Assembly: GCA_022706085.1 (NCBI GenBank)
Contig: JAKJDF010000001.1
Location: forward strand, 48,394 to 112,393
Source: Candidatus Latescibacterota bacterium
GTDB taxonomy: Bacteria; Latescibacterota; MWCZ01
Direction: 5' to 3'
DNA: 64,000 nt
Under the pieces are notes generated by a model. That model saw nothing but the letters and a program-made list of their open reading frames with translations. It made no database searches and was not told where the DNA came from. Of the stretch, positions 9,351 through 32,730 are shown piece by piece. How positions within the stretch are numbered: the first letter of the stretch is position 1; each line of letters begins with the position of its first letter. The translations under genes and the position numbers were made by a program.

Positions 9351-11351
9351 TCACCCCGGCAACCGCGCCGCCACCAGCTCCGCAATGTCCATCACCTTCA
9401 CGCGCCCCTCCGCGTGCTCATCCTTGATCCCGTCGTCGAACATCGTCATGCAGTAGGGGCATGCCACCGCAACAACGTCCGCGTCTTTCCCCAGAGCTTC
9501 CCGCACCCGATTTGCGTTGATGCGGTGCTCAGGCTCCTCTTCCATCCACATCCGGCCCCCGCCCGCGCCGCAGCAGAAGCTCTTCTCAAGGCGGCGGTCC
9601 ATCTCCAGTGGTTTCCGCCCTGTCACCCGCCGCACCACTTCCCTCGGCTCCTCGTACAATCCGTTGTACCTTCCGAGGTAACACGAGTCGTGGTACAAAA
9701 CCTTCCCGTCCGCAACCGGTTTGTCCCCGTCCAGCTTCAGACGCCCTGTCTCAAGCAATTCATGCAGGAACTCCGAATGATGCCGGACCTCCATATTCAT
9801 GCCAAACTGGTGGTAATCGTGTTTCAACGTGGTGTAGCAATGGGGGCAATAGGTTATGATTCTTCTTACGTCGTATTTCTTGAAAAGCTCGACGTTCGTG
9901 TTCGCCATCCGCTCAAACAGATACTCGTTGCCAAGTCGGCGGACGGAATCCCCGCAGCATTTTTCCTCCGTCCCGAGGATCGCAAACTGAACGCCCGCGG
10001 CCTTCAGCGCGCGCACCACCGCGGTGGCCACCTTCTTGTTCCGTGCGTCAAACGCCCCGGCGCACCCCACGAAAAACAGCGTGTCGCATCTCGCCTCTGA
10101 CATGAGCGGCACCGCCAGATCACGCGCCCATTTCGCGCGGTCTCCCGGCGTGATGCCCCACGGATTTGATCGCTGCTCGACGGACTCGAAAAACACGGCC
10201 AGTTCGTGCGGGAAGCTCGCCTCATTCTCCACAAGGTGCCGGCGCATCTTGATGATTTTGGGAACATGCTCGATGAACACCGGGCAGTTCGTCATGCAGG
10301 CGCCGCACGTGGTGCATGCCCACAGAGCGTCCTCGCCGATGGTCCCCTGATGCTCATCGGTTTTGCCGATCAACGGCATCAGGCCCTCAGATCGGTTCCC
10401 CTGCAGAAGCCTCGACCCGTTCGTCAGCAGGTTCACCTTCCCGTCGTGCACCAGAAGGCGCGGGTTGAGAGGCTTTCCGGTGCTGGTCGCCGGGCAGTTC
10501 TGGTTACAGCGTCCGCATTCCGTACACGCCGTGAAATCCAGAAGGTCTTTCCACGAGAACTCATCCACGACCGACACGCCAAACCGCGCGCCCGGTTTGA
10601 ACTCCTCGCGCGGCACCGTCGCCGGATACTCAAACGACCGCGCGTAGCAGTTCGGGATCGCGGTGAGGATGTGCATGTGCTTGCTGTACGGCAGGTAGTT
10701 CAGGAAGCTCAGAACGATCAACCCGTGCAGCCACCAGAACACCCGCGCGGCAATCGGCGTCGCGCTGCCGAACAGACTGCCCATCAACGGCGCGAAAATC
10801 GTCTCGGTGACAGGCATGACGCCCGCCACGCTCATCGTCCCGGACGCGAATTCCGAGCCATAAAGGCAGAAAAACGCCAGCATCAGCGCCCCGATGAGGC
10901 TCAAAATGAGATACCCGTCCCGGCTGTTATACTCGATGTGCGCGGGTTTCAGCACCAGCCGTCGGAAGAACGCGATAGCAACGTTGACCAGCACAATCAT
11001 GCTGATCACGTCAAACAGGAACAGGAGCGCCCCGTAGATGGGTTCTCCGAGCAGCTCAAAGGTTATTGACGGAAAAAGCCCGGCAATCACGAACTCCCCG
11101 TTTGCCAGGAAGAGGATGATGAACCCCCAGAACAGGAAGAAGTGGTTCCAGCCGTACGTCTCCTTCCGCACGCGCCGTTGCCAGAACGCGTACACCAGCA
11201 TGGTCCAGAAACGCCGCAGCAGCTCTCCCGATAGCCTGCCATCCGGTTTCCCCAGCCGGATGAACGACACCAGCCGCCAGACCGACTGCAGAAATGCGGC
11301 TACCGCTATTGCCAGAACAACCGCAAAGATCACATTCTCTGTCTGAGACAT
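9351..11351 (-). CDS. membrane-bound Fe-S oxidoreductase (HdrD/GlpC-like, two CCG domains), probable ETF:quinone-linked partner
   Basis: N-terminal polytopic hydrophobic domain. Two CxxCxxCxxxCP motifs (CTECGRCNQNCP, CTTCGACMTNCP). Two Cys-rich CCG-type regions (EEKCCGDS, KSFCCGAGGG). Lies 5 nt downstream of etfA in the same strand. Confidence 0.75.
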   Translation of the reverse strand: MSQTENVIFAVVLAIAVAAFLQSVWRLVSFIRLGKPDGRLSGELLRRFWTMLVYAFWQRRVRKETYGWNHFFLFWGFIILFLANGEFVIAGLFPSITFELLGEPIYGALLFLFDVISMIVLVNVAIAFFRRLVLKPAHIEYNSRDGYLILSLIGALMLAFFCLYGSEFASGTMSVAGVMPVTETIFAPLMGSLFGSATPIAARVFWWLHGLIVLSFLNYLPYSKHMHILTAIPNCYARSFEYPATVPREEFKPGARFGVSVVDEFSWKDLLDFTACTECGRCNQNCPATSTGKPLNPRLLVHDGKVNLLTNGSRLLQGNRSEGLMPLIGKTDEHQGTIGEDALWACTTCGACMTNCPVFIEHVPKIIKMRRHLVENEASFPHELAVFFESVEQRSNPWGITPGDRAKWARDLAVPLMSEARCDTLFFVGCAGAFDARNKKVATAVVRALKAAGVQFAILGTEEKCCGDSVRRLGNEYLFERMANTNVELFKKYDVRRIITYCPHCYTTLKHDYHQFGMNMEVRHHSEFLHELLETGRLKLDGDKPVADGKVLYHDSCYLGRYNGLYEEPREVVRRVTGRKPLEMDRRLEKSFCCGAGGGRMWMEEEPEHRINANRVREALGKDADVVAVACPYCMTMFDDGIKDEHAEGRVKVMDIAELVAARLPG

Positions 11352-11356
11352 GCTCG

Positions 11357-12712
11357 TCAGCCTTTCTGGTTGCCGGAGTCGGACGGTTTTCCCGCCATTT
11401 CGCGGAATCTCTTCGTAAGAAGAGGCACGATCTGGAAGAGATCACCGACCAGGCCGAAGTGAGCGACTTCGAAAATTGGAGCGTCTTTGTCCCGGTTGAT
11501 CGCGATGATGAGGTCAGCATCCTGCATTCCCACCAGGTGCTGGATCGCGCCGGAGATGCCGCACGCAATGTATACTTTCGGCCGCACCGTTTTTCCTGTC
11601 TGCCCGACCTGCCGTTCGTAGGGCATCCAGCCCGCGTCGACGGCGGCACGGGAGGAGGCCACCGTTCCGCCCAGAACGTCCGCCAGTTCCTGAAGCAGGC
11701 GGTAGTTTTCCGGCCCCTGCATGCCGCGTCCACCCGAAACGAGCACGTCCGCGCCGGCGATATCAACGCGATTGGCGGCACCCTCGTCTTCGCGCACTTC
11801 AAGCACTTTGACGCGTATTTCGTCCTCGGACATGTCCAGAGGCTCCACGACGACGGTGCCGTGCGCGCCGCTCACCGGTTCCGGTTTCGGCATGACGTGC
11901 GGGCGCACGGTTGCCATCTGGGGGCGGTGCCGCTCCGTCAGAATGGTAGCCATGATGTTGCCGCCGAACGCCGGGCGCGTCTGTTCCAGAAGCCTGCCGG
12001 CTTTGTCAATGGCGAGCCCGGTGCAATCGGCCGTCAGGCCCGTGTGGAGATCGGTGGCGACTGCACCGGCGAGATCCCTTCCGAGCCCTGTCGCGCCCAT
12101 CAGCACCACTTCCGGCTTGTACTTGCGTATGAGATCGGAGGATGCCTTGAGGTAGGGTTCCGTGCGGTAGTTCTTCAGAATCGGATCGTCCACGAGGTAG
12201 ACCTTCTTCGCGCCGTATGCGAAGGCCTCCTCGGCCAGGTGACCGATTTCATGGCCCAGAATGTAGGCGCACAGGTCCACCTCGAGGTCGGCTGCCAGTC
12301 TGGCACCCGCGCCGAGCAGTTCCCAGCTTACCGCCGCCGCGCGGCCGTTCTGCTGTTCCACGAACACCCAGACGCCGCGGTAGCTCTGGTCTACCCTGGG
12401 AACCGGCCCCTCCTTCTCGGGCGCTTCTTTCGCGAAACCGAGCCGTGCAAGCTCGGCAAGAACCGCCTCTTCCTCGGGGGTGAAGAACATTTCCAGGGCG
12501 GCTGCGGGGCATACTTTCACGCACTTCTTGCACCCGATGCAGTTTTCGAGGATGATGATGGGTTCCCCCCGATCATTCATCTCGATCGCGTCTGCCGGGC
12601 ATTCCGCCTGGCAGAGCGCGCCGCATGCGATGCATTTGCCCTCGATGAGCCGGGCGCGTCCTCTGGGGCGTTTCGGGCGTTTGGGTTCGCCAAGACTGCT
12701 TTTCTCGGGCAC
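11357..12712 (-). CDS. etfA: electron transfer flavoprotein alpha subunit with N-terminal 2x[4Fe-4S] ferredoxin domain
   Basis: CIACGALCQAECP and CIGCKKCVKVCP motifs, followed by the ETF alpha fold with FAD-binding block PKVYIACGISGAIQHLVGM. Confidence 0.85.
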   Translation of the reverse strand: MPEKSSLGEPKRPKRPRGRARLIEGKCIACGALCQAECPADAIEMNDRGEPIIILENCIGCKKCVKVCPAAALEMFFTPEEEAVLAELARLGFAKEAPEKEGPVPRVDQSYRGVWVFVEQQNGRAAAVSWELLGAGARLAADLEVDLCAYILGHEIGHLAEEAFAYGAKKVYLVDDPILKNYRTEPYLKASSDLIRKYKPEVVLMGATGLGRDLAGAVATDLHTGLTADCTGLAIDKAGRLLEQTRPAFGGNIMATILTERHRPQMATVRPHVMPKPEPVSGAHGTVVVEPLDMSEDEIRVKVLEVREDEGAANRVDIAGADVLVSGGRGMQGPENYRLLQELADVLGGTVASSRAAVDAGWMPYERQVGQTGKTVRPKVYIACGISGAIQHLVGMQDADLIIAINRDKDAPIFEVAHFGLVGDLFQIVPLLTKRFREMAGKPSDSGNQKG

Positions 12713-12760
12713 CGCGGATTTCTCCTTGTTACGGGTTGGCCGGCAGCACCATCGTGCCGC

Positions 12761-13603
12761 CTAGCGCCCGACGGAAATCAGGTCCTTCTCAATCAGCCGT
12801 TTGATCAGAAGCGCAACCGCGCCTTCGGGATCGTTCTCCGCATCCCCCAGGACTTCTCCGCGCGCACGTTCCGGGGCGAAAATCTTTTTGACGTGGGTGG
12901 GCGAGCCTTTGAGGCCGACTCGTGAGAGATTCAGTTGCAAAAACTGGTTATCCCACACGGGGATTTCGGCGGTTTCCGCCATGAGCCGGTTTGGCACCTT
13001 CGGGTAGCGGGGCTCGTTAATCTCGCGCACCAGGGTCAGGCAGGCGGGCAGAAGGGCACGCACGACCTCCCGGCGGCCTTCAAGCTTCCTCCGCACGGTG
13101 ATGGTTCGCTCCGCACCGTTGATGTCCAGAATCCTGTCTACCAGAGTCAGCAGGCAATAGTTCAGTCGGACGGCAATGCCGGGGCCCACCTGAGCGGTAT
13201 CGCCGTCTATCGTCTGCTTCCCGCAGATGACGAGATCCACCCTTCCCTGTTCTTTTTCGACGCGGCGGATGACTTCGGAGAGCACGTAACTCGTCGCCAG
13301 AGTATCCGCCCCGCCAAATACGCGGTCGGATACCAGCACCACATCGTCCACGCCGAGGGCGAGGCACCTGCGCAGGGTTGCCGCCGCGTTGGGCGGCCCC
13401 ATGGTGACCGCAGTCACGAGGCATCCGAACCGATCCTTGAGGCGCAGTGCCTCCTCCACGGCGTGCGTGTCAAACGGGTTCATGATGAACGGCACGCCTT
13501 CACGGATCAGCGTACCCGTTGCAGGGTCCACCTTCACCTGCGTCGTATCGGGCACCTGTTTGACGGCCACCACCACGCGATTCAGCGTTTTCCGTGTTGT
13601 CAT
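12761..13603 (-). CDS. etfB: electron transfer flavoprotein beta subunit (FixA/bifurcating-type motif)
   Basis: N-terminus VVAVKQVPDT. DGDTAQVGP motif encoded at 13181..13207. Adjacent to etfA. Confidence 0.85.
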   Translation of the reverse strand: MTTRKTLNRVVVAVKQVPDTTQVKVDPATGTLIREGVPFIMNPFDTHAVEEALRLKDRFGCLVTAVTMGPPNAAATLRRCLALGVDDVVLVSDRVFGGADTLATSYVLSEVIRRVEKEQGRVDLVICGKQTIDGDTAQVGPGIAVRLNYCLLTLVDRILDINGAERTITVRRKLEGRREVVRALLPACLTLVREINEPRYPKVPNRLMAETAEIPVWDNQFLQLNLSRVGLKGSPTHVKKIFAPERARGEVLGDAENDPEGAVALLIKRLIEKDLISVGR

Positions 13604-13833
13604 ACGGTAGAATCCTCGTGACGTATTCGCTCATGGCGGGTGAGAGCAGTGATGCTGGTATCAGGAGGAACCAAGAGGCAATCCTTTTTCGCACGCCAGA
13701 CCGGGCCGCCGCGGGTGAGTCCTGCCGCGCGGCACGCGCAGGGAACTCCCGGGCGGTGTCGGATGGTTTCCAGAGATTGGTAAAGGTAACGAAAAGCATG
13801 AGGCGGGGCGAAGCCTCCCGTGGAGGTTTTCCT

Positions 13834-14256: not shown

Positions 14257-16263
14257 TTGCGGTACGGTGATCGTCTGTTTTCGAACGTCGCACGCGTTGC
14301 GCGGGAGCAACGCCTCGGACGTCATGTCGCACCGACACTCCTGACCATCCTGCTGGTTTCCGCCCCCTCGGCGTTTGCCCTCGCCAACTACACGGACCCG
14401 TCCGGGTACCCCACGCCGTGGCCAAGCGTGTTAACCACCAGCGCCTACACGCGGCTCGGCGTCCCGGAGGCGGACAAAACCGGTCAGACTGACGGGTCCA
14501 AAGGCGCTTCGCCACAAAGCTCCAACGACTTCTCCTCGGGCCCTCTCAACGACCAGCCGTCGTTTTTCTACTACGGGAACGGCACGATCCTCTACTTCCG
14601 CTTCCGTGTCGGCGGGCCGCCGACCGCACTCACCGGCAGCGGGCAGCCCTTCACTTCCGCCACGTGGAACGTGTTGATGGACACGGACGGCGACGGATGG
14701 AAGGAGTTCGTCGTCTTTCTGGATGGCACCAGTTCAACCGTTCAGCCGGACGACATCGTCATTATCTACGAAAACGTGAACAGCCAGCGGTTCGACATGA
14801 ATCAGGTCGGAATCTGGCGGCAGGACTGCGCGGGACCCAACGACAACGTGGACGGCGCATCCGGCAAAAGTTCGACATGGGACACCGACCCCGATGCCTA
14901 CGTGTGGGATTTTGGCAGGACGCGGGTGGTGCAGATTGACCGGACAAAACCGGCGGGAAGCCAGAACAGCGAATACTGGATTGACGTGCAGGTGCCCGTT
15001 GAGGCCTTTGACGCAAGGTCGCTTACCCCGCCAGGTCCGCAGCTCACCGCGTCGAGTTTCTTCTCCATTGCCGCAACCACAAGCGCGAGCAACACTGATC
15101 CCACGCACAAGGACCTGCTGTACAGCGGGGATTTCGCGCTGGCGGACGTTCCGTTGCCGGGCGGAGACCTTTACGATGGGTACGGCACCCGAATAGACGC
15201 GCCGATCATCGCCGGGCTTACCCAGACGGGCTGCCCTTCGCCTGATACGCTCAAAGCGACGGTCGCGGATGTTTTGACCGTAGTCGGTGGTCTGACGACG
15301 GACACAATAGATTCGGTGTGGTTTGAGGTTTACTACGATTACAACGGCGACTGGGCGGAGAACGACCCCGGCCAGACGTGGACCCGCATCGGCGCAGGGA
15401 CCCGCACGGGAATCGGGCAGTTCCGGTACGTCTGGGATGTGTCGCAGGTGTCCGCCGGCAATTTCCTGATCCGGGCGGTAGCGCGCGACAAACAGAATAA
15501 CACGACGTATTCCACAAGCAACCCGGCCGGCACGACGTACCTCGTTGCGAAGTTCACCAACACCTGCAGCGCCATTGCCGTACTCAACACGTCAACAAAA
15601 TCCGTTTCTGACCTCAACGGCGCACAGACGCTTCCGGGCGACACGCTGCTGTACACGATCGTGATCCGTAACACCGGCGGCGGCAGCGCTACAAGCGTGG
15701 TGCTCAAGGATACGGTCTCCGCGTATCTCAACTACGTCGTGAACTCCGCCGCGCCGACGCCTGCGGCGACTACGCCGGCGCTGCAGTGGAACGTCGGTAC
15801 GCTGGCGGCGGGTGCTTCGGCGACGTTCACGTTCCGCGGAGTAGTGAAAAGCCCGATCGCGAACCAGACGGAAGTCCTTAACAAAGGCTGGATAACATAC
15901 AACACCGGAGCCATGACGGGCCTTTCCCGTCTTGTCACCGCCTCGATCACGGTCACTTCTCAGCCGATGGCCACGTGTTCAAAGAGCGTCAACAAGAGCA
16001 CCGCGGCGCCGGGGGATACACTGACCTACACCGTGACGTATGGAAACAACGGCACCGATACGGCCACGTTCCTCATCATCTCGGATACGGTGCCGACTCA
16101 GACCAGTTATGTCTTAAACAGTGTAACGCTCAACGGCGTGCCGAAGACCGACGCGGCTGACGCGGATCAGGTGACCGTCTCCGGGGGCAACATAAGTGTT
16201 TCGGTGGGAACCGTTCCGGTGGGCGGGAGCGGAACGTTTTCGTTCCGCGTGAGAGTGAAGTAG
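14257..16263 (+). CDS. secreted DUF11-repeat protein 1 with a unique ~260-aa N-terminal domain (candidate tip/adhesin)
   Basis: TTG start with GGAGG 9 nt upstream. Signal peptide ...LLVSAPSAFALA. DUF11 cores (LPGDTLLYTIVIRNTGGGSATSVVLKDTV; APGDTLTYTVTYGNNGTDTATFLIISDTVP). Ends ...GTFSFRVRVK. Confidence 0.8.
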   Translation: MRYGDRLFSNVARVAREQRLGRHVAPTLLTILLVSAPSAFALANYTDPSGYPTPWPSVLTTSAYTRLGVPEADKTGQTDGSKGASPQSSNDFSSGPLNDQPSFFYYGNGTILYFRFRVGGPPTALTGSGQPFTSATWNVLMDTDGDGWKEFVVFLDGTSSTVQPDDIVIIYENVNSQRFDMNQVGIWRQDCAGPNDNVDGASGKSSTWDTDPDAYVWDFGRTRVVQIDRTKPAGSQNSEYWIDVQVPVEAFDARSLTPPGPQLTASSFFSIAATTSASNTDPTHKDLLYSGDFALADVPLPGGDLYDGYGTRIDAPIIAGLTQTGCPSPDTLKATVADVLTVVGGLTTDTIDSVWFEVYYDYNGDWAENDPGQTWTRIGAGTRTGIGQFRYVWDVSQVSAGNFLIRAVARDKQNNTTYSTSNPAGTTYLVAKFTNTCSAIAVLNTSTKSVSDLNGAQTLPGDTLLYTIVIRNTGGGSATSVVLKDTVSAYLNYVVNSAAPTPAATTPALQWNVGTLAAGASATFTFRGVVKSPIANQTEVLNKGWITYNTGAMTGLSRLVTASITVTSQPMATCSKSVNKSTAAPGDTLTYTVTYGNNGTDTATFLIISDTVPTQTSYVLNSVTLNGVPKTDAADADQVTVSGGNISVSVGTVPVGGSGTFSFRVRVK

Positions 16264-16277
16264 GAAAGGAGCGTGCA

Positions 16278-16859
16278 ATGAGTAGCGACACGGGCATCAG
16301 GCGGGGAGGTTCACGCGCGTTGAGCGCGTTGATCCTCCTGATTGCCGCGTGTGGTGCGCTTGCGGTCAGCCAGCCCGCACGTGCTCAACAACCGGCAGCA
16401 AACGGCGTGTCCATCACCATCACCGACGAACTCGTCCTGCCCGCGGGTGATCCGCGAATCGGGAAAGCGGTGAGGGACAGCGCCGGTAACCTCATTTCCA
16501 GACCGGGTGACATCATCAAGTATACCCTTACCGCCGTGAACAATGGCACGGAGCCGGCGTACGGCGTGGAAATCGTGGACCCGATCCCTCGGGGAACGGA
16601 GTTCGTCATCGGGAGCGCCGCCGGCGTCGGGATGACGATCACGTACAGCGTCGATGGAGGCAGGTTTTTCCAACCTGCACCCATCATGTATGACTTCCAG
16701 AAGCCGGACGGAACGATTGAGAAGCGGCACGTGCCGGCCGACCGTTACACGCACATCAAATGGCTGGTGAACGAGCCAATCAGGCCGCGATCCAGAGCAG
16801 TCGCCACCGTTCGGGTAAGAGTGTCCTTGCCCGGAGCAGCAGAAGGGGCAGGACAATGA
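16278..16859 (+). CDS. secreted single-DUF11-domain protein 2
   Basis: AAGGAG RBS. Signal peptide ending AVSQPARA. DUF11 core RPGDIIKYTLTAVNNGTEPAYGVEIVDPIPRGTEFV. Confidence 0.75.
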   Translation: MSSDTGIRRGGSRALSALILLIAACGALAVSQPARAQQPAANGVSITITDELVLPAGDPRIGKAVRDSAGNLISRPGDIIKYTLTAVNNGTEPAYGVEIVDPIPRGTEFVIGSAAGVGMTITYSVDGGRFFQPAPIMYDFQKPDGTIEKRHVPADRYTHIKWLVNEPIRPRSRAVATVRVRVSLPGAAEGAGQ

Positions 16860-16948
16860 CGACACATCGTTCACGGTTTTTTTCACGAGAGCAAACGCGC
16901 ACGAGCTCACACAATACCCCGGAACCACTCTCTGAAAGGAGGAGCGCC

Positions 16949-18685
16949 ATGAAGGCACTCAGGGGTCGAACATGGTGGTTTCTCGGGTTGCTGCTGGCCC
17001 TTGTTCCTTTCGGAACGTCCTGGGCCGCCGGCACACCTGCGGGAACCGTCATCAGTAACTTCGCGACCTTGAGCTACAGGGACGTGAACGGCAATGCGTT
17101 GCCGAACATCACCTCGAACACCGTCACCACCGTGGTGGCGCAGGTTGCCGGCGTGGATGTCTCGCCGGCCACGTCGTCCCAGTCGGTGGCGGAAAACTCG
17201 TGGGTCTCGTACACCGCGACAGTCACCAACATGGGCAACGGCACCGATTCGTTCACCCTCACCACGTCAGCCCTGTCTTCCGGCTGGACGGCCGTTATTT
17301 ACGGCGACCCGAACAATAACGGGGTTCTGGACGCGGGTGAGATGGTGCCGGGCAACGTTGTCAGCACCATCGCGAGCCTCCCGGCGGATAGCGCGAAGCA
17401 CGTATTCGTGGTCGTGAACGTGCCGCTGGGTGCACTGGATGGTTCGTCACAGGCAGTCACGCTGACCGCGACCTCGCAGTTCAACACCGGCGTCTCGGAT
17501 GCGGGCGTGTACACGTCCACCGTCTCAACTGCCGTGCTGTCCATGACGAAGTCGGCAACTCCAGCCGACCCGAAGCCGGGTGACATCGTGACGTACGCCA
17601 TCGTGGGGAATAACACCGGCACCAGCACGGCGTACGGTGTCGTTGTCAAAGACATCATCCCCAGTGGCGTGACCTATGTTCCCGGTTCCACGCGCATCGT
17701 CATCGGTCCGGGCGGCACGTATGATACGGCTACGCCGATGACGGACGCGGCGGATGCCGACCCGGTGGATTACGGCGTTACCGCAGCCGGTCAGGTGACC
17801 GTCAACTGGGGCAATTCCCCGGCCGGACAGACCGGAACCATTTTCATCCGCGTGCAGGTGAACGCCGGCATCGCGGCGGGAACGGTTGTCTCCAACCAGG
17901 CCAGTGCTACGTACAGCTCCACGCCGGGAGGCGACCCGCTTCCTGCGGTGAACAGCACGCCGGGTGATATCACCGTTGCCGCGAAACCCATCATCACACT
18001 GTCGAACACTTCGCTGGCGCTCACCGGCCAACCGGGTGACAGCCTGACGTATGCCTTCAGCCTGACAAACAGCGGCAACTCGAACGATGTGTTCGACTTC
18101 ACGACGTCCTCCACGCAGGGCTTCACCAATCAGATCTGGCTCGATGCCAACAACGACGGCATCGCCGGGAATGATGGCGACGTTCTGCTGACGGACACCG
18201 ACAGCGATGGCAAGGTCGATACGGGCTCAATACCGGCAGGTACCGTTGCCCATATCATCGTGGCGCTGGTGGTAACGCCGGGAACGGCGGACATGGACGT
18301 GGACGCCACCACGGTAACGGTCGCGTCTTCCGTCGATCCGACGGTTACAGGCACGGTTACGCTTACCTCCACCGTGCACGCGCCGGTGCTTTCGATTGTG
18401 AAGTCCGTGTCTCCGACCGGCTCACAGCCGCCCGGCACGGTGCTGACGTATACGGTCGTGGTGTCGAACAATGGCCATGGCACGGCGACGCAGTTGCAGA
18501 TCGTGGACCTGATCCCCACCAACACAACGTATCAGGCCGGGACGATCAAGGTGAACGGAACCGCGCGCACCGACGCCGTTGACGGGGACAACGCCGAACT
18601 GCAGGGTGGCAGCGTGGTCGTTCGCTTCGCCACGATGGGCGCAGGCTCGAGTAACACGTTCACGTTCGACGTGAAGATTGACTGA
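16949..18685 (+). CDS. secreted DUF11-repeat protein 3 (candidate fibre shaft subunit)
   Basis: ORF 16760..18685. ATG 16949 has AAAGGAGGAG upstream and gives signal peptide MKALRGRTWWFLGLLLALVPFGTSWA. An alternative ATG 16856 overlaps the stop of protein 2. DUF11 cores KPGDIVTYAIVGNNTGTSTAYGVVVKDIIPSG and PPGTVLTYTVVVSNNGHGTATQLQIVDLIP. DxDxDG-like loops. Confidence 0.8.
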   Translation: MKALRGRTWWFLGLLLALVPFGTSWAAGTPAGTVISNFATLSYRDVNGNALPNITSNTVTTVVAQVAGVDVSPATSSQSVAENSWVSYTATVTNMGNGTDSFTLTTSALSSGWTAVIYGDPNNNGVLDAGEMVPGNVVSTIASLPADSAKHVFVVVNVPLGALDGSSQAVTLTATSQFNTGVSDAGVYTSTVSTAVLSMTKSATPADPKPGDIVTYAIVGNNTGTSTAYGVVVKDIIPSGVTYVPGSTRIVIGPGGTYDTATPMTDAADADPVDYGVTAAGQVTVNWGNSPAGQTGTIFIRVQVNAGIAAGTVVSNQASATYSSTPGGDPLPAVNSTPGDITVAAKPIITLSNTSLALTGQPGDSLTYAFSLTNSGNSNDVFDFTTSSTQGFTNQIWLDANNDGIAGNDGDVLLTDTDSDGKVDTGSIPAGTVAHIIVALVVTPGTADMDVDATTVTVASSVDPTVTGTVTLTSTVHAPVLSIVKSVSPTGSQPPGTVLTYTVVVSNNGHGTATQLQIVDLIPTNTTYQAGTIKVNGTARTDAVDGDNAELQGGSVVVRFATMGAGSSNTFTFDVKID

Positions 18686-18720
18686 CGAGCAGCAGAGCAG
18701 ATGAGCTGAGTTGAATCAGG

Positions 18721-18752
18721 CTCCTCTCCCGCCTTTCGGGGCGGGAGAGGAG
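18721..18752 (+). terminator. 13-bp perfect stem-loop (CTCCTCTCCCGCC-TTTCGG-GGCGGGAGAGGAG) between protein 3 and the giant gene; attenuator or mRNA-stabilising hairpin candidate
   Basis: Read directly. Not followed by a T-run, so not a canonical intrinsic terminator. Confidence 0.45.
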
Positions 18753-18789
18753 CGCAACGACGGCAAAGAAAAAGAATCGAGAAAGATAG

Positions 18790-21700
18790 ATGTTCTCGCG
18801 TCTTCGGCTACGGGTGTACCTACTGGTCGCCGCCATGTGCATGGCAGCGACCAGTGTGTACGCCGTGACGCCGCCGGGAACGCTGATCACGAGCCAGGCT
18901 TCCGCTACGTATTTTGATAACGGCGGCTTCCAGTTCTCCATCCTGAGTAACACCGTTGTTACGCCGGTTCTCGGCGCCGTCGTCGGGACGGACGGTACGA
19001 TAGCTCAGAACACGCAGATCGTCGCCGGCGAACCCATTACGATCATTGTTACGGACCCCGACCGCGATTACCTCCCGAACGCGATTGACACGGTGCATGT
19101 GACCGTGGTGAACTCGCGGACGGGCGAAACCGAAACCCTTGTGCTGTACGAAACCGGGCAGGGCACCGGCGTGTTTTCCGGTTCCCTGCCCACCTATTAC
19201 GGTCAGAGCGCAGGCGCTGACGGTGATGGGACGCTGTTCGCGCAGCCGGGGGACGTGTTGCAGACGTCCTACGCCGACACGGCAACGTCGACCGGCGGCA
19301 CGGCGACGGTGACCGGCCAGACAAGCGTTCTGCCCACCTGGATCAAGCTAACGCCAGAACCGCACACCATCGTCGCCAACGGAACCGATCAATCGCGGCT
19401 GACCGCCCGGGTGACGGATGACCTTGACCGGCCGCTGCCGGACGGGACGATCGTCGTGTTTACGGCGGACAAGGGCAAGTTCTCGAACGGGACGCAGCGG
19501 ATCGAGGTGCCGGTAGCAGGTGGCAACGGGGAAGCAGTCACCGTGCTCACCGCACCCATTCTGGCGGCGAATGACACGGCGCGCGTGCTTGCGTCGTATC
19601 GCGGGTTCGATTCGGACGTGATCAAGTTGATCATCCTGCCGGGCGCCGTTGCGGTGCGCGTGTATGACCAGACACGAGACGTTGAGGTGAGGGCGAGTGA
19701 CCCGGCGCTTCTTGTTGAGGTGACGCTCGAAGGAACCACGGTCACCGGCGACCCGGTTTCGATCCACGTCACGGTGGACGAGAATGGCGTGTTCGTCGTG
19801 CCGGATATTCCGCCCGGCAACTATGAACTGCACGTCGTTGTGACGAGCCGAACTACGGGCGAAGTCGTCATGGACGGCGTGCTCCAAACCATCATCGTGA
19901 ATATGGACGGGTCGACCTCGCCGCCGCGCAACTCCGTAAGCGGGATGGTGCATGCGCGTAATGAGGAGTCGGGGGCGCGGTATGCCGGCGCGACGGTTGA
20001 GCTTTTGGACGCCAGCGGCAACGTGGTGGCGACCACGATCCTCGACGCCATGGGCAGGTACGAGTTTCAGAACCTGCTGCCGGGGGCCTACTCCCTGCGC
20101 GTGAAGATGGAGGACGGCGATACCTTCACGGTGCCCGTTTCCTCGCGCACGAACAACCTCGGCGAAGTGGTGTTGAACGCAGACGTGCTGATTGATCCGT
20201 TCGGGCGGGTGTTTGATGCCGTCACTACCGCGTTGATTCCCGGGTCCACGGTGACGCTGCGGAACCTTGACGAGAGTGTGCTGGCGATCCCGCCGCTGAG
20301 TGGAACCGGCGTCCCGCCGAACGTGAACAACATCAACCCGTTCGTCACGCCAGCCGACGGCCGGTACGCGTTCCTGTTCAGCTCATCACAGGTAGGGACG
20401 GTGGCGAATCCGGCGCGGTACATCATGACGGTAGATCCGCCATCCGGAACCACGTATCCGCCGCGCAGGATGCACCTGACGGTGCGGCCGACGGCGGAAG
20501 GTTCGTCGACGATCATGATGACGGTGGCCTCCGGCGACGGCCTTCAGATCGCGCGGCCAAACTCGTTCGGGCTCACCAACGGACCGGTCACGGTTCCGGA
20601 TATCGAGACGGTTGCCTACAACGTGCCGATGTTCGCGAAAACACCGATTCTGAAGTTCTCGAAGCTCGCGTCCACCGACACGACCAGCTACGGTGAGACG
20701 GTTGACTTTGCGATCGTGGTGAAGAACTTGGGGAACGACATCGCGCCTGCGGTCACCGTCACCGACACGCTGAACAGCGGGTGGAAGCTCGTTTCGTCGG
20801 ATGCCACATCGTCGAGCGGGGGTATGCTGAGCTGGGCTGTCGGCGACCTGCAGCCGGGCGGGAGCGATACGCTGCATGTGCGCGCCGAGGCGATGGACCA
20901 GGGCGTGATTCTGACGAACGCCGCGTGGGCGCAGTTCACGGGTGGGCTGCCGATCTCCTCGCAGGCGGATGTGGTCTCGCGCAGCGCGTCGTCGATATCC
21001 GTCACGAAGGCAGTCGTGACGCCGCCGGCACTTGTGGGAAAAGAGATTCACTACGAGATCCGTTTGAAGACCCCGCCGGGGTACGCAGGCAAGATCACGG
21101 TTGAAGACCCCCTGCCGCCCGAACTGGTGTACATCGTTGGAAGCAGCGTTCCGGCTGCGACGTACGATGCGGGTACGCATACGCTTACGTGGGATGTCTC
21201 CGGCGCCACCACTGACACAGTGCGGGTGTTCAGATTCGCCACGGAGCCGCGCACCGACCTGTCGCCGGGGGACTATCCGATTCCCAACACGGCGACGGCA
21301 AGCGTGGGAGCGTTCAAAATCGGCTCGAACCGGGCGGACGACCTCGTGACGGTGCCCTACTTCCGAATCACGAAAACGTCGGACATCACCAGCGCGGAAA
21401 CCGGCGATTTCGTGGTGTACCGGATCGCGCTGGAGAACCTCAGCGCGTCCGACAGCCTGTCGAACATCGTGGTGCGGGACGTTATGCCGTTCGGTTTCGA
21501 GTATGTGCCCAACACGGCGCGCCTCGACGGCGTTCCCGCTCCGCCGGACACACTGCGGGACCGGCAGATCATCTGGAAGGTTTCCGGGGTAGGCGCCGGC
21601 AGAACCCGCCAGCTCACCTACCGGCTCGTGCTGGGCATGGGGGCGGGCGCGGGAGACGGGCGGAACACCGCAACGGCAACTGCGAAGACCTCGCGTGGGG

Positions 21701-24700
21701 CGACACTGGCCGCCGGCCCTGCTACGGCGAGGGTGTTCGTCCGGCCTGCGCCGTTCAGCAGCGATCAGGTGGTTCTTGGCCGCGCGTGGGTTGATCTGAA
21801 CGGCAACAAGGTGCACGATGAAGGTGAACCGGGTGTTCCGGGCGTGGTACTCCTGATGGAAGACGGCACGCGCATCATCGCCGATAGGTCGGGCCGATTC
21901 TCCATTCCGGAAATCCGCGCCGGCGACCACGCAATCCGGCTTCTGGAGCACAACATTCCGGACAGCCTCGAGCCGGTGATTCTGGGCGTGAGGTCTACGA
22001 ACGATCCGTGGGTACGGTTCGTAAGCGTATCCGCCTCAGGGATGGCGAAGGCGAACTTCCCGTTCCGGGTGAAACCTCGTGCACCGGCCCCACCGCCACC
22101 GCCGCCGCCTCCTCCGCCGCCACCGGCACCGCCCGAGTCGCTCACCGTGGCGGTCACCATTGAGCGGGTGATCGTTCCGGATTCGATTACGATCCCGGCG
22201 TCGGAGACGATCATACTGGAGTCCGGCGTGACGTTTGCAACCGGGAAAGCCGATCTGCGCCCTGAAGGAATCGCGGTGCTGAACGATCTGCTCCCGAGAA
22301 TCAAACGAGCGCAGGGCCGTCAGATCACGGTGAGCGGACATACTGATCCGCGGCCGATCCGCACGCGGCAGTTCCCCAACAACATGGTTCTTTCGCTGGC
22401 GCGAGCTCGTTCGGTGCGCAACTGGATGGTGCAGAACGGCGTGGATTCGACGCACATCGCGATATTCGGGTACGGTCCCGACCGGCCCATAGCACCAAAC
22501 ACCACGCCGGAGGGGATGCAGAAGAACCGCCGCGTGGAGATCAACCTTGATTACGGAACCGAGGCGCGGACGATTCCTGCCGGGACCGCCCGTGTGCGGC
22601 TCGCGATCCGCACCTCGGAAAATGCGGCACGCGATACATTCACGATCTCGCAGCCTCTTCCGGAGGATATTGCGCGTCCTGCTCCGGATTCGTTGCAAGA
22701 TCGTACCGTGCAACACGGAGACTCCGTGTGGGCGAAAATCGGCCGCGAGACTTCAGTGTTCACCGATCTGCCCGCCCCTGTGGTCACCCACCGCACGTGG
22801 GGCGCGATTCCGCTGCGCCGCACGAGCGAGCACCGGGATGGAACGATACGCGAGACGTGGAACGGTAGTATCCGCGTTCCCCTGCCGGCTGATTCGGGCG
22901 CTTCGGCGGTTCCGCAGAGTGGCCCGGTTCAGACAGGGCAAACGCCCGCGGGTGCGCCGGCGGGAATCAGTTCCGCTTCAGCCGTCGCTGCCTTTGGAAC
23001 AGCGACCGAAACGGGGCTCACCCCGGCGAATGGCGTGGCGCAGACAGGTGCTTCGGCTGCTATCTCAGACAGCGCAACGCGGGCACTGGCGCCGCCAATC
23101 GAGCTGCGACAGGCGCCCACGCCGAGAGAACGTGTCCAGCGACCGGGTCAACTGGTGTGGATCGAGTACCCGACCGCAGACAGCACAGTGAGTTATCGTG
23201 ACCGCTTGACACTGATTGCGCGCGGACGCGCTGGAACGCCGATGACACTCCGGCTGAATGGCAGGGAAGTCACGACGCTCACTGTTCGCGCGGATTCGAA
23301 GGCGGATTTCCTCAACATTGCGGCGCCTTCCGGCCCTGTGACGCTCACCGTTACGCAGACGCTGCCGGGCGGGCGGGTTTTTGCCGACAGCGTTTTCCTG
23401 CACGTGGTGGGACCCGCCGCGCGGGTGACTCTTGACGTGAGCCCTTCGACCCTGCCGGCTGACAGTCTCTCGCAGACGGAGGCGGTCGCGCAGGTGCTCG
23501 ACGAGTGGGGTATGCCGCTGGCAGACGGGCAGATCGTCACTTTCGAAATCGATAATGGTTCGATCCTTACACCGGATCTTTACCCCGACGAGAGGGGAGT
23601 TCAGGTCCAGGTAAGAAACGGATACGCCTCCGTACTCATCCAGAGTTCCGCGACAGTCGGCGAGGCAACGCTGACCGCGAATGCGTCGAACGTCGTTGCC
23701 AGGGCAACTCTGAATTATGCCGTGCCGTACGAGAGATTTACGCTGGTGGGTCTGGCTTCCGGCCAAGTCGGGTGGAAAACGAATGCCGCGGCTCCGGCCG
23801 GAATCAATTTTGGCGAGGACTTCGAGAAGGGCGCGTATGGAAAAGGCAAAGTGGCATTCTTTGGTCGCGGAACGGTGCGCAACAACTACCTCCTGACTAC
23901 ATCGTTTGATTCGGATCGGCGGTTTGACGACCAGGTGTATCGTTATCTGACGCCAGAACGAGCGTATCCCATCCATGGCGACGCCAGCTCGATTTTCTAC
24001 GAAGCGCCCTCCGCGAGCAAGTTCTTCTTCCGGCTCGCGAAAGAACGGAACTACCTGCAGTACGGGGATTTCGCGCCGGATCTTTCGCAAGCTGAGCTTA
24101 CGGCGTACCGGAGGACCTTCACGGGCGTGACCGCCGCAATGCGTAACCGGCGCACCGCGTGGAGCCTTTTTGGCGCCTTCACCGAGCAGGCGATACAGGT
24201 TGACGAGATTCCGGGCGAGGGGATTTCCGGGAATTACTACCTGTCGGCGGCACGTCGTGGCGTGCGCGTGGTGGAAGGAAGCGAAAGGATCGTCATTCAG
24301 ACGCGCGACCGTATTCATCCGGAAAACATTCTGCGCGAGGAAGTGCAATACCGCTTCATCGATTACGAGATAGACTATCTCGCCGGCACGATCCTGTTCA
24401 AGAAGCCAATCCCCAGCCGGGGTTTTGACGAGAACCCGATTTTCATTGTCGCCACGTACGAAGCGTCGCGCGCGCTTCAACGGCACACGGTGGGCGGTGG
24501 CCGATTTGCGCTTCATTCCGGCGAAAAATGGGAGGTCGGCACTTCGGTTGTGGGCGAAGGGCGATCCACGGGTGACTACTGGCTTAGCGGCGTTGACGCC
24601 AGTTATCGGCCTCTGCGAAACATGTTCGTCAATGCGGAGCTGGCGAGGTCGGATCTGGCGCAGACGGGATGGGCGTGGAAATTCGGCGCGCAGGGCCGGT

Positions 24701-26185: not shown

Positions 26186-27229
26186 TCAGACTGCTACCTC
26201 TCCCCCGTCCTTCCTCAACAGCTCGATCACTTTCCCCATTACGGCGAACGCGTCGGCGACGTAGAGAACGTCCGCCTTCCCCCTCGCCCACCCGCAACTG
26301 GGATCGAGATTTACGGCGCGCCGTTCGTTGATGAATCGCCATCCCACCACGTGCGGTTCCTCACCGTGGCAGCAGGTTGCAAGCCCTTTGGGATGGCGCG
26401 GCGTGGACCCCGTTTGACCTACCTGGTGCATATGGGTCAGAAGGCTGATCACCTTCTGCCCTTCCCCGGACTGATCCACCAGGGATTTGCTGCTCCCCAG
26501 GGATGCGTGCGTCAGGTCAAGGAAGCTCCGGATCAGGTTCTCGGCTTCCTCGACATGAACTTCTCCGTCGGACTGTTTCTTCGTCCACCCGGCCCCCGCA
26601 ACAAACAGGAGATCGGCATCGGGGCGAATCGTCTGGGTTCCTGCGGAAGCTGGTTCGATTCCGGCGATCCGGGTGCGCGTTTCCACCGGTTCCACAGGTA
26701 GTATGGAGACCTCCGCGTGCCCGGCAGCGCCGCCCCAAGGGTCGAATACCCCCGGCTCGAGAAGCACCACCCACGGTCGCTGGGACCGTGTCAATTCAGC
26801 AACCATCCTCTGCCGATAGTACCACCGCTGGACGAGAAGCGTGCTTTCGTCCACGCGGAGGCCGGTCACGCGCGTGTCAACGCGACCCTTCGCCCGAAAC
26901 GCAGCACCGGGCATGCAACGCGCGGTGCGGGTGGTCTGAGGCGCCAGGACGAAATCCGCTTCGGCAGCGCGAATCAAAGCCGCAGCCGCTGCTGAATCGG
27001 TGGCACACCTTGCAGACGCAAACTCTGGTCCCTGGACGGCAAGAATCCGGGTTGCGCCGCACGAACCGATGCTGTCCGCGGCTTGTTGAACACGCTCGCC
27101 AATCAATCCGACGTCGAGTGCCGCACCGAATGCCTGTGCAAGCTCGCACGCTCCGGACAACGCTTCAAGCGTTGCTTTCCCGAGAACCCCGTTTTCCTCA
27201 ACAAATGCGACAAGAAGAATCTTTTTCAT
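26186..27229 (-). CDS. divergent electron transfer flavoprotein alpha-like subunit
   Basis: ORF 26186..27256, start ATG 27229 (MKKILLVAFVE...). ETF alpha fold with QVGQTGSTPRHP block. The canonical GISGAIQH FAD motif is replaced by CCHGEEPH. Confidence 0.75.
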   Translation of the reverse strand: MKKILLVAFVEENGVLGKATLEALSGACELAQAFGAALDVGLIGERVQQAADSIGSCGATRILAVQGPEFASARCATDSAAAAALIRAAEADFVLAPQTTRTARCMPGAAFRAKGRVDTRVTGLRVDESTLLVQRWYYRQRMVAELTRSQRPWVVLLEPGVFDPWGGAAGHAEVSILPVEPVETRTRIAGIEPASAGTQTIRPDADLLFVAGAGWTKKQSDGEVHVEEAENLIRSFLDLTHASLGSSKSLVDQSGEGQKVISLLTHMHQVGQTGSTPRHPKGLATCCHGEEPHVVGWRFINERRAVNLDPSCGWARGKADVLYVADAFAVMGKVIELLRKDGGEVAV

Positions 27230-27256
27230 TGCACTACCTGTTCCTCGCTGGCTCAA

Positions 27257-28066
27257 TCATCCCCGTATCCACGCGACAATTTCCTCGGCAATCTGTTCCA
27301 CCGGGACATCCTTGACGATGCGAGTGTTTCGTTGCTGCTGTGGGAGTTCCACCTTCACGAACGAAACCCCTTCCGCGCCAACCTGCACCTGCGGGGCCTT
27401 TTGCAGAGCCGGCATGACGCTTCGCATGTTCGCCATCCCGATTTGCGGGTTGTTCGGCGGCTCAGGCAGGTGGCCCGTCGCCCAGCCAACGACCAGCGGA
27501 GGACGATCGCACCTGCTGACGAGGTAATTGCCGCCTTCGACGCGTTCCATGAGACTGATTTCACCGTTCTCAGAAACCGACAGCGAATCAACCGCGAGAA
27601 AGACCTCCCCAATCCCGAGCATTTCGCCAACGACTTGAAGGGTGACACCTGCGTCCCGCGACGCAGACGCGTACCCCCCGAAAAGAAGCAACCGGTTCCT
27701 GTCCAGGTCTGAAATCGCACCTATCGCGTTCGCAAGCGCGGTTGCGGTTTCAAACGGGTCGCAGAAGCCGCTGGCAGACCCGTCAACCGGCACGAAGATG
27801 AACGGAGCTTTCTGTGCGACTGTCATCATGAGTTGCTGCAGTCGCTGCTTTGGACCGACACTGACCAGCCACACTTTCGATCCCGCATTTTCTTTTGCGA
27901 GATGCGCGGCCTCGTACAGCGCGTGCGCGGCCCACGGATCCAGCACGGACGGCAGGATCATCTCGTTTTTGAGCGCTGGCCCCTTCGGTCCGAGATCCGG
28001 CTCGAGGGTCTGCAACGGATCCGGCACCAGACTTCCGCATACAACGATGTGATATCCCGATTCCAT
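27257..28066 (-). CDS. divergent electron transfer flavoprotein beta-like subunit
   Basis: ETF beta-like length and N-terminus (HIVVCGSLVPDP). Lacks the DGDTAQVGP motif (has SASRDAGVTLQVVGEMLG). Adjacent to the alpha-like subunit. Confidence 0.7.
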   Translation of the reverse strand: MESGYHIVVCGSLVPDPLQTLEPDLGPKGPALKNEMILPSVLDPWAAHALYEAAHLAKENAGSKVWLVSVGPKQRLQQLMMTVAQKAPFIFVPVDGSASGFCDPFETATALANAIGAISDLDRNRLLLFGGYASASRDAGVTLQVVGEMLGIGEVFLAVDSLSVSENGEISLMERVEGGNYLVSRCDRPPLVVGWATGHLPEPPNNPQIGMANMRSVMPALQKAPQVQVGAEGVSFVKVELPQQQRNTRIVKDVPVEQIAEEIVAWIRG

Positions 28067-28090
28067 GAAATCTTGTTCCTTCAGAAAGTG

Positions 28091-29986: not shown

Positions 29987-30018
29987 TCGCTCTCAAATCC
30001 GCGCCACGACACCAATGT

Positions 30019-32220: not shown

Positions 32221-32730
32221 GACGGAGTCACCGTTTGCGGATGAAAGCATCTTCTGGAACCCCTGTAGTGCGTGAGCAACGGAGGAAAAGGCCGGGGAAC
32301 CCTGACTGTTCGCAGATCTGTAATCCTGCGTCTGATCGGGAGGGCGGATGGAAGCCGTGCGGCGCGCTCGTCATCGTTGCGCGCGGGTGAATCAGGTGCG
32401 TATGTTTTGGATTGCGCCGACTGCAATCACGCCCAGGACGTTTATTAAGGTCATAATCCGCGAAGGAGCAGTCAAGGGCGAGCAGTTCCGACGTGCAGCA
32501 CGTTTCGCGATGCGTGGTTCAGGTTGAGTCTGATTGTAGCAGGATTGTTTGATCACGGTTTGTGGTACGATTTGCATTACGCGCTTAATTCCCACGGGAA
32601 ACCCTGTTCTTACCGCAGCTTGACACAGACCTGAGAGCGCTGCGACGCATCGCGTGTGAAAAATACGAGCAAAACAGGGCTGATCTGAGAACACGCGAAC
32701 GGGGCTTCGCTTTCAAATTTCGGATACCGT

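Follow-up and report, generated by a model that had tools for sequence, protein, structure and literature searches.

A putative surface fibre of diderm bacteria in which a naturally split isopeptide domain may be completed between chains

The four genes and their products

A 64,000-nucleotide stretch from a Candidatus Latescibacterota bacterium (assembly GCA_022706085.1, contig JAKJDF010000001.1, positions 48,394-112,393 of the forward strand), hereafter the window, carries four plus-strand genes at 14257-26145 that encode P1, P2, P3 and a much longer protein, the giant. Each product has a signal peptide and domains of the DUF11/CLIPPER family, with PF01345 scores of 72.6 bits for P1, 33.6 for P2, 60.4 for P3 and 118.1 for the giant (cut-off 24.6). 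TIGR01451 matches across the cluster proteins reach 48-94 bits (cut-off 24), and P3 also matches TIGR04226, the isopeptide-forming fimbrial domain, at 39.4 bits (cut-off 30). Judged from their sequences, the products of the four genes probably form a modular fibre on the surface of a diderm cell, in which a CnaA-like isopeptide domain of this family is completed between chains. P1, P2 and P3 end in a truncated copy of the domain, an acceptor, and both P3 and the giant begin with the missing segment, a donor.

P1, the putative tip protein (668 aa; 14257-16263, plus strand), starts at a putative TTG codon and has a signal peptide cleaved at about A41/L42. An N-terminal region of about 400 aa, for which no Pfam or PDB relative was found, is followed by one complete and one truncated CLIPPER domain. 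The complete domain (15586-15954, plus strand) ends in ...TASITV and holds a full isopeptide triad of Lys448, Asp485 and Asn536 (SPIANQTEV). The acceptor (15964-16260, plus strand), recognized by an acceptor-end profile match and by its DUF11 coverage, consists of strands 1-7 only; it keeps Lys576 (15982-15984) and Asp610 (16084-16086), and its C-terminus, ...GTFSFRVRVK, runs directly into the stop codon.

P2 (193 aa; 16278-16859, plus strand) is a small secreted protein with a single CLIPPER-like domain that ends after strand 7 (...ATVRVRVSLPGAAEGAGQ, then stop) and no donor. Its family is conserved in 44 loci, with the end pattern ..F.V.VK before the stop codon, and P2 may act as a cap, an initiator or a holder of donor strands. 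The sole cysteine of P2, Cys25 (16350-16352, in LLIAAC), lies within a possible lipobox, the only one in the cluster. The idea that P2 is generally a lipoprotein was rejected: the lipobox is not conserved, and homologues carry signal peptidase I sites (..AQG). In the window it may be lineage-specific or fortuitous.

P3, the putative shaft subunit (578 aa; 16949-18685, plus strand), was delineated from Pfam/NCBIfam domains, homologues and an AlphaFold2 (AF2) model. Its longest open reading frame (ORF) begins at 16760, 63 codons upstream and overlapping the end of P2; homologues and the signal peptide indicate that the true start is the ATG at 16949. The protein comprises a signal peptide, the donor, an immunoglobulin (Ig)-like domain, a complete CLIPPER domain, a second Ig-like domain and a truncated CLIPPER domain. 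The mature N-terminus, AGTPAGTVISNFATLSY..., follows the cleavage site SWA/A. Family conservation, profile alignment and the AF2 model identify residues 27-66 (17027-17146, plus strand), AGTPAGTVISNFATLSYRDVNGNALPNITSNTVTTVVAQV, as the donor, equivalent to CLIPPER strands 8 and 9. This segment is the best-conserved part of the P3 family and contains the isopeptide-type Asn37 (17057-17059). The internal complete domain (17522-17986, plus strand), with Lys201, Asp235 and Asn316, covers DUF11 positions 2-108 of 114 and matches TIGR04226; it served as the reference for the split domain. The acceptor, residues 478-578 (18380-18682, plus strand), is a CLIPPER domain truncated to strands 1-7, as indicated by DUF11 coverage and homologue conservation. 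It contains Lys485 (18401-18403) and Asp520 (18506-18508) and ends in ...NTFTFDVKID. A Candidatus Latescibacteria metagenome-assembled genome encodes a protein with 100% identity to P3.

Two further features of P3 were observed. Loops of its Ig-like domains at about residues 118-130 and 397-423 (about 17300-17340 and 18137-18217) are rich in Asp, Asn and Gly (DPNNNGVLDAGE and DANNDGIAGNDGDVLLTDTDSDGKVD); they look like calcium-binding sites, and several of their positions are invariant in the family. The position of the last residue, Asp578 (18680-18682), is occupied by Asp or Asn in 110 of the 115 homologues, and the ends of P1 and P2 are varied polar residues. A complemented domain would bring the C-terminal carboxylate of P3 beside the alpha-amine of the incoming donor.

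The giant, a putative anchor and terminator (2451 aa; 18790-26145, plus strand), is characterized by a donor start, an OmpA-like domain and the lack of a truncated terminal domain. Its mature N-terminus, VTPPGTLITSQASATY..., follows the cleavage site VYA/V. The donor segment, residues 26-61 (18865-18972, plus strand), VTPPGTLITSQASATYFDNGGFQFSILSNTVVTPVL, was identified by a match to the P3 donor profile and has Ser35 (18892-18894) at the position that is Asn in most giants of other loci. Behind the signal peptide and donor, the N-terminal half contains an Ig-like (Big_1/Invasin-like) domain, a CarboxypepD_reg/SdrD_B domain and three CLIPPER stalk domains. The remainder consists, in order, of a poly-Pro linker, the OmpA-like domain, a low-complexity linker, Ig-like domains and a barrel module of about 800 aa.

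The OmpA-like peptidoglycan-binding domain (residues 1148-1247; 22231-22551, plus strand) matches PF00691 with an E-value of 1.1e-17 and 64.6 bits (cut-off 27.2), and a simple pattern search found the OmpA-type motif N[RQ]R[VIAT]... (NRRVE type) in large proteins from at least 37 ORFs across loci. Just before this domain, residues 1096-1116 (22075-22137; PRAPAPPPPPPPPPPPPAPPE) include 12 consecutive prolines, a run long enough to cross a membrane or a barrel lumen. As a conserved membrane-spanning element the linker was rejected, being confined to the window's lineage. Between the OmpA-like domain and the Ig-like and barrel part lies a low-complexity stretch rich in Ala, Gly, Pro, Ser and Thr (about residues 1255-1454; 22552-23150), probably a flexible periplasmic linker born of gene fusion.

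The final module, residues 1641-2451 (23710-26142, plus strand), is assigned as a probable outer-membrane beta-barrel from weak Pfam matches and locus comparison. Altogether 56 ORFs contain it, some as part of the giant and others as a stand-alone gene product of about 1030 aa. Pfam matches of its homologues are weak and fall mostly in outer-membrane barrel or porin families, and profile searches with the module against PDB and Pfam gave no confident relative. Comparison of loci shows that the giant is a fusion: elsewhere, the part equivalent to the Ig-like and barrel region (23152-26142 in the window) is mostly a separate gene downstream of an OmpA-bearing stalk protein, for example at 10778-13825 in locus L003 and 16952-20038 in locus L004. 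The giants of Bacteroidota carry the OmpA-like domain at the extreme C-terminus.

A split CLIPPER domain and its proposed completion

DUF11 was renamed CLIPPER in a 2025 global survey of intramolecular isopeptide bonds, whose crystal structure 9IFR shows a nine-strand CnaA-like sandwich whose structural domain, residues 708-828, holds Lys715, Asp748 and Asn806 (PMC12617251). The isopeptide bond of CnaA-like folds joins the first and penultimate strands (PMC12617251). As the Asn of the 9IFR domain sits on this second-to-last strand, the N in xNxA can be identified as the isopeptide Asn of strand 8 and belongs to the domain of the preceding core. It follows that P1, P2 and P3 end after strand 7 and lack two strands. 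PDB sequence and profile searches with P3, the fused domain and profile A4 reached neither 9IFR nor any other CLIPPER structure, so these domain boundaries rest on the published survey and on Pfam model coordinates.

Appending the donor restores the curated models. The last domain of P3 alone covers DUF11 positions 2-83 of 114, and with the mature P3 N-terminus it covers 2-114. The last domain of P1 extends in the same way, from 5-84 to 5-114, and its DUF7619 score rises from 27 to 41.6 bits once the P3 donor is appended. A profile of P3 residues 478-578 joined to residues 27-66 aligns with the internal-domain profile over 139 columns (hhalign probability 100%, E-value 1.2e-41) without a gap at the junction, where FxVtID followed by AGTPAGTxIsNxA is placed on FqVxVN.gVxAGTxIxNxA. 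The division therefore falls cleanly in the loop between strands 7 and 8, and an AxA signal-peptidase site (AxA/A is conserved in P3) sets the new N-terminus exactly at this junction. Two further matches of the P3 N-terminal segment profile are the N-terminus of the giant (independent E-value 6.8e-5) and, within P3 itself, strands 8-9 of the internal domain. No Pfam domain spans the donor together with the start of the first Ig-like domain in the curated model scan.

The residues of the isopeptide triad are distributed accordingly. Internal domains carry a contiguous Lys-Asp-Asn triad (K448/D485/N536 in P1, K201/D235/N316 in P3), and terminal copies have Lys and Asp, with the Asn strand on another chain. 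In the window the P1 acceptor offers K576 and D610 and P1 has no donor; P3 offers K485 and D520 together with donor N37; and the giant, a donor only, offers no acceptor Lys or Asp and presents Ser35. Since truncated domains keep the partner Lys and the catalytic Asp and donors carry the isopeptide Asn, complementation is probably covalent in many lineages. With Ser35 in place of Asn, the P3-giant link would be non-covalent in the window.

Structure prediction was carried out on mature P3 with an 88-sequence alignment and gave a mean predicted local distance difference test (pLDDT) of 90 and a predicted template modelling score (pTM) of 0.63. Within this model the donor reaches pLDDT 83-96 and the truncated C-terminal domain 94-97. 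DSSP assignment shows the expected strand pattern, with the donor strand breaking right after the Asn like internal strand 8. A chimera of P3 acceptor, P3 donor and first Ig-like domain, modelled by AF2 without an alignment, reached a pLDDT of 46, too low to be informative. Foldseek searches of the P3 model against PDB returned generic multi-Ig matches only (PrgB, integrin legs, AgI/II).

These results refine an earlier note on the same DNA. All sequences quoted there for P1, P2, P3 and the giant are present at their places. Its statement that P1-P3 stop right after the core of their last domain holds, but the strand at which they stop is the antepenultimate one, strand 7, rather than the penultimate one, as 9IFR and the DSSP assignment of the P3 model indicate. 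By the same evidence, strands 8 and 9 are both missing, not a single strand. Profile matches, the gapless hhalign alignment and DUF11 completion bear out the proposal that P3 and the giant begin with the missing segment directly after signal cleavage. The note had allowed that the GTxIxNxA...SNxV segment might instead be the first strand or strands of the following domain; curated models and 9IFR place it with the preceding core.

Conservation and covariation across genomes

P3 has at least 547 homologues. The best 120 of them span many phyla, and nearly all measure 537-613 aa, the exceptions being fragments of 380-492 aa. Every one of the 115 full-length homologues has the donor start and stops after strand 7, with the pattern of a signal peptide followed by AGTPAGTxIxNxAxxxYxDANGN...SNxVTTxVxQV and a C-terminal ...FxVxI[DN] before the stop codon. 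When GTDB species, each represented by one genome, were scanned with a 38-sequence subset alignment, relatives turned up in 292 species genomes. The gene set occurs in Latescibacterota, Gemmatimonadota, Desulfobacterota, Marinimicrobia, Lentisphaerota, Bacteroidota, Ignavibacteriota, Acidobacteriota and others, and the cultured Desulfatibacillum aliphaticivorans DSM 15576 carries it in a different gene order (AUCT01000003.1, 330-352 kb).

Comparison of 76 loci from 79 genomes revealed a recurrent order of tip-like protein, P2-like protein, P3-like protein (two in Bacteroidota), OmpA-bearing giant and barrel module. Tip-like proteins vary from 278 to 3124 aa and have the truncated core at their end, and, at the strict profile threshold, a donor start was found in none of them across the 76 loci. 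Giants begin with a donor in essentially every locus (54 of 71 by relaxed profile, the remainder by motif inspection), and a truncated core was found at the C-terminus of no giant in the 76 loci. Of 153 donor-like matches, 138 come immediately after a signal peptide and 13 immediately after a core; the remaining two are mis-called ORF starts, likewise behind a signal peptide, which leaves no true orphan internal donor among them. The division of roles described in the earlier note, with P1 as acceptor only, P3 as donor and acceptor and the giant as donor only, is kept across these loci. The predicted conservation of stopping after the core and starting with the segment is likewise found in the P3 homologues and in the loci.

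The triad residues covary both within P3 and between proteins. Among the full-length P3 homologues, K485 is present in 113 of 115, D520 in 113 of 115 and donor N37 in 108 of 115; the only two with K485R are also the only two without D520, and both have N37H. In a neighbour-joining tree built from 169 P3 sequences, losses of Lys or Asp fall only inside clades whose donor lacks Asn. No sequence that retains Asn37 has lost either residue, and Asn and Lys were lost on the same branch twice, independently. Scored for acceptor Lys and donor Asn, P3 shows both in 41 cases, Lys only in 4, Asn only in none and neither in 12. Between proteins, P1 acceptor Lys and P3 donor Asn are both present in 38 of 57 loci, Lys only in 2, Asn only in 3 and neither in 14, an association with a Fisher p of 9e-9, not corrected for phylogeny. 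Locus L003 illustrates a joint change of all partners: K to A and D to G in P1, K to R in P2, K to R, D to G and N to H in P3, and N to S in the giant.

In Bacteroidota, the donors of both P3 paralogues lack the Asn (AGTPAGTVIQSRSR), and the Lys and Asp of P3a are replaced by R and E. P3b keeps Lys and Asp along with the giant donor Asn in nine loci, and both are lost in two. Some Marinimicrobia similarly combine a P3 donor Ala with retained P3 Lys and Asp and a giant Asn. Closure within a single chain hardly accounts for a P3 acceptor that, by these patterns, would be reactive only toward the Asn of another protein. Beyond their two P3 paralogues (P3a with R/E, P3b with K/D), the Bacteroidota-type loci L056-L082 have tips of 2000-3100 aa and a two-domain P2 of about 360 aa, which suggests an ordered tip-shaft-adaptor-anchor arrangement.

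The proposed fibre assembly, its alternatives and known systems

The sequence logic and the covariation make strand completion between chains probable. After Sec export, the two-strand N-terminal donor of an incoming subunit would enter the truncated last domain of the preceding one. The chain would run from P1, a variable tip for which P2 could stand in as an acceptor-only cap, through a number of P3 copies to the giant, which has no acceptor and would terminate it. The OmpA-like domain of the giant would tie the fibre to peptidoglycan, and the barrel module is a candidate outer-membrane conduit, an analogue of an usher; that the fibre reaches the surface through this barrel is a tentative proposal, put at slightly less than an even chance. 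Insertion would set P3 N37 beside the acceptor Lys and Asp (K576/D610 in P1, K485/D520 in P3), and an amide bond would then form by itself, with no enzyme, as within intact CLIPPER domains. Such a bond is reasonably likely wherever the triad is present. In the window, P1-P3 and P3-P3 junctions would be covalent, and P3 and the giant would be joined through strand complementation alone.

The cluster appears to be self-contained, as both flanks are opposite-strand genes of other functions: minus-strand groups at 9351-13603 and 26186-32250 encode electron-transfer flavoprotein (ETF) alpha and beta subunits, an Fe-S/CCG oxidoreductase, an ETF-ubiquinone oxidoreductase (ETF-QO)-like protein and an acyl-CoA dehydrogenase. 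No sortase, PapD-like chaperone or known usher (PF00577) was matched by Pfam or NCBIfam in P1-P3, the giant or the flanking genes. The four proteins contain no true LPxTG motif, a relaxed pattern matching only LPGAA in P2, and the C-termini of P1 (...VRVK), P2 (...GAGQ) and P3 (...VKID) have no sorting signal.

Several observations weigh against a P3 fibre completed between chains. The argument for P3 homopolymerization is indirect, and a fixed P1-P3-giant chain would account for much of the data. The confident AF2 donor segment is compatible with docking onto P3's own C-terminal domain, and the cluster offers no explanation for the solubility of truncated domains in the periplasm. The covariation rests on few independent lineages and has exceptions (loci L060, L061, L063, L067, L068 and L077), and four Bacteroidota loci break the P3b-giant pattern. 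Finally, mutual information with average product correction between the donor and the rest of P3 (169 sequences, effective 145) showed no enrichment of donor-acceptor couplings, its signal being dominated by a clade-level component.

One alternative is that the N-terminal strands of P3 complete its own C-terminal domain, giving a four-domain ring or a discontinuous domain like those of RrgA/GBS104 and making P3 a monomeric adhesin module with no polymer. The AF2 model is in keeping with this (donor pLDDT 94-96, pTM 0.63 for the four-domain chain), CnaA-like domains tolerate discontinuous topology and domain insertions (PMC12617251), and the covariation of Asn37, Lys485 and Asp520 inside P3 would be explained equally well. 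However, with no donor in P1- and P2-like proteins and no truncated end in giants, self-completion is excluded for P1, P2 and the giant, which must pair between chains. The Lys of P1 tracks the donor Asn of P3, and P3b of Bacteroidota and some Marinimicrobia P3 keep Lys and Asp without a donor Asn of their own while the giant donor has one. Moreover, the three intervening P3 domains are contiguous rather than nested, so that closure would require a ring of stalk-type domains, and self-complementation of strand-exchanging pilins is common in AF2 monomers. Closure within P3 is therefore improbable. An adhesin of fixed stoichiometry, in which P1 (or P2), P3 and the giant form a three-piece stalk of defined length, or a four-piece one with the extra Bacteroidota paralogue, is also considered unlikely. 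One copy each of P1, P3 and the giant would balance exactly, with seven cores for seven strand 8-9 segments, and the distinct acceptor chemistry of the two Bacteroidota paralogues is what ordered adaptors would show. Yet P3 Lys and Asp are kept in the window and in locus L019, where the giant donor has Ser and the sole Asn donor is another P3. The donor and acceptor are the best-conserved parts of P3, and no natural P3-P3 or P3-giant fusion occurs among the best 120 homologues. A P3 homopolymer is thus slightly favoured over a fixed stalk.

Two further readings were weighed. Seven-strand CLIPPER_2 domains are known (PMC12617251), and the truncated C-terminal domain of P3 is modelled with pLDDT 94-97, so the terminal domains might be complete seven-strand domains of that kind, with the N-terminal segments as extra strands of the first domain. 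In CLIPPER_2 too, however, the Asn strand follows the core and is part of the domain (PMC12617251). The donor is homologous to strands 8-9 with a gapless junction, the Pfam matches stop near position 84 of 114 until the donor completes them, no Pfam domain covers the donor and the start of the first Ig-like domain, and the triad covaries across termini and across proteins. Taken together, these points make this reading very improbable. The similar repeats and the error-prone nature of metagenome assemblies could also suggest that P1, P3 and the giant are fragments of a single long tandem-repeat adhesin gene, produced by frameshifts or misassembly. This was rejected: a start codon, a signal peptide and a conserved cleavage site are present separately in each of the pieces, and the break falls at the same loop in 76 loci, across many phyla and in the cultured D. 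aliphaticivorans. On balance, the donor-strand-complementation logic proposed in the earlier note, with tip, shaft and anchor built from DUF11 domains, draws support from the split, the complementarity of the pieces, their conservation and their covariation.

The proposed fibre resembles the chaperone-usher pili in its logic. There, the tip (FimH/PapG) has a groove without a donor, the shaft (FimA/PapA) has both and a terminating subunit (PapH) lacks an acceptor; the polarity is alike, with the tip first, as are Sec export of the subunits and the presence of an outer-membrane barrel protein. The two are analogous, not homologous: the cluster uses the CLIPPER (CnaA-like) fold instead of the pilin fold, a fimbrial Ig fold without strand G that bears an N-terminal extension, and donates two strands instead of one. 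It also has four-domain subunits of about 550 residues, an OmpA-like anchor domain and a probably covalent junction, and neither a PapD-like chaperone nor a PF00577 usher was detected in it. Type V pili (FimA/Mfa1) of Bacteroidia likewise combine inter-subunit strand exchange with a tip, shaft and anchor in diderm cells. Their donor is C-terminal, however, in lipoprotein precursors of another fold that are activated by proteolytic loss of the N-terminal strand, whereas the donor here is N-terminal, directly behind an AxA site of the signal peptidase I type.

Covalent joining brings the sortase pili to mind (SpaA, RrgB, Spy0128), which are built from covalent multi-domain pilins with CnaA/CnaB isopeptide domains and have a tip, shaft and base; some P3 homologues are named 'isopeptide-forming domain-containing fimbrial protein' by NCBI. 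Unlike these, the cluster occurs in diderm hosts, its scans and those of its neighbours revealed no LPxTG, pilin motif or sortase, and subunits would be joined by the Lys-Asn bond of the domain itself, where sortase pili have an enzyme-made Thr-Lys link. Protein engineers have produced comparable pairs in the laboratory: SpyTag/SpyCatcher, SnoopTag/SnoopCatcher and DogTag/DogCatcher derive from Gram-positive CnaB-type or RrgA isopeptide domains, divided so that a single reactive residue is on one piece and the remainder of the triad on the other. When the pieces dock, the fold is regained and a spontaneous bond links the two chains. DogTag has the Asn on the small piece, as do the donors of the cluster. 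If the proposed mechanism is true, the cluster is a natural, evolutionarily conserved and fibre-building counterpart of these pairs.

In archaea, the thread of Sulfolobus acidocaldarius, made of Saci_0406, combines Sec export, N-terminal donor-strand complementation and an inter-subunit isopeptide bond with no sortase, the bond joining the N-terminal alpha-amine of Asp24 to Asn57 of subunit n+2 (PMC9715654). The likeness is confined to this mechanism of donor strand and inter-subunit bond. By its description the thread is set apart as archaeal, with a single small subunit, no Pfam domain and no set of tip, anchor and barrel, whereas a Lys-Asn-Asp triad of a CnaA-type domain would act between neighbours here. 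Intact CLIPPER adhesin domains such as 9IFR belong to the same family, with nine strands, Lys on strand 1, Asp, and Asn on strand 8 (PMC12617251), and the internal domains of the cluster are ordinary members. The bond lies within one contiguous chain in all described cases, while the terminal copies here are split in the loop between strands 7 and 8. The global isopeptide survey makes no mention of such splitting (PMC12617251). The earlier note knew of no description of such an arrangement, and full-text literature searches found no split DUF11/CLIPPER system either.

Collectively, there is about an even chance that the cluster represents an unrecognized and widespread class of diderm fibre, in which two strands are donated to a naturally split CnaA-type domain, a Lys-Asn lock forms by itself with neither sortase nor chaperone, and export uses a new barrel. 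If true, this would be a new class of pilus assembly that reuses donor-strand complementation with an unrelated fold and links subunits covalently in Gram-negative-type cells without a sortase. Nature would then have divided an isopeptide domain into a 'tag' and a 'catcher' before protein engineers did, and hundreds of natural, mutually specific donor-acceptor pairs, covalent and non-covalent, would be available for biotechnology. Covalent fibre building in the periplasm or on the surface, without enzyme or ATP, would also become directly testable. For the many uncultured phyla that carry it, the proposal gives a role to a conserved set of five gene modules whose members are now annotated as hypothetical or DUF11 proteins.

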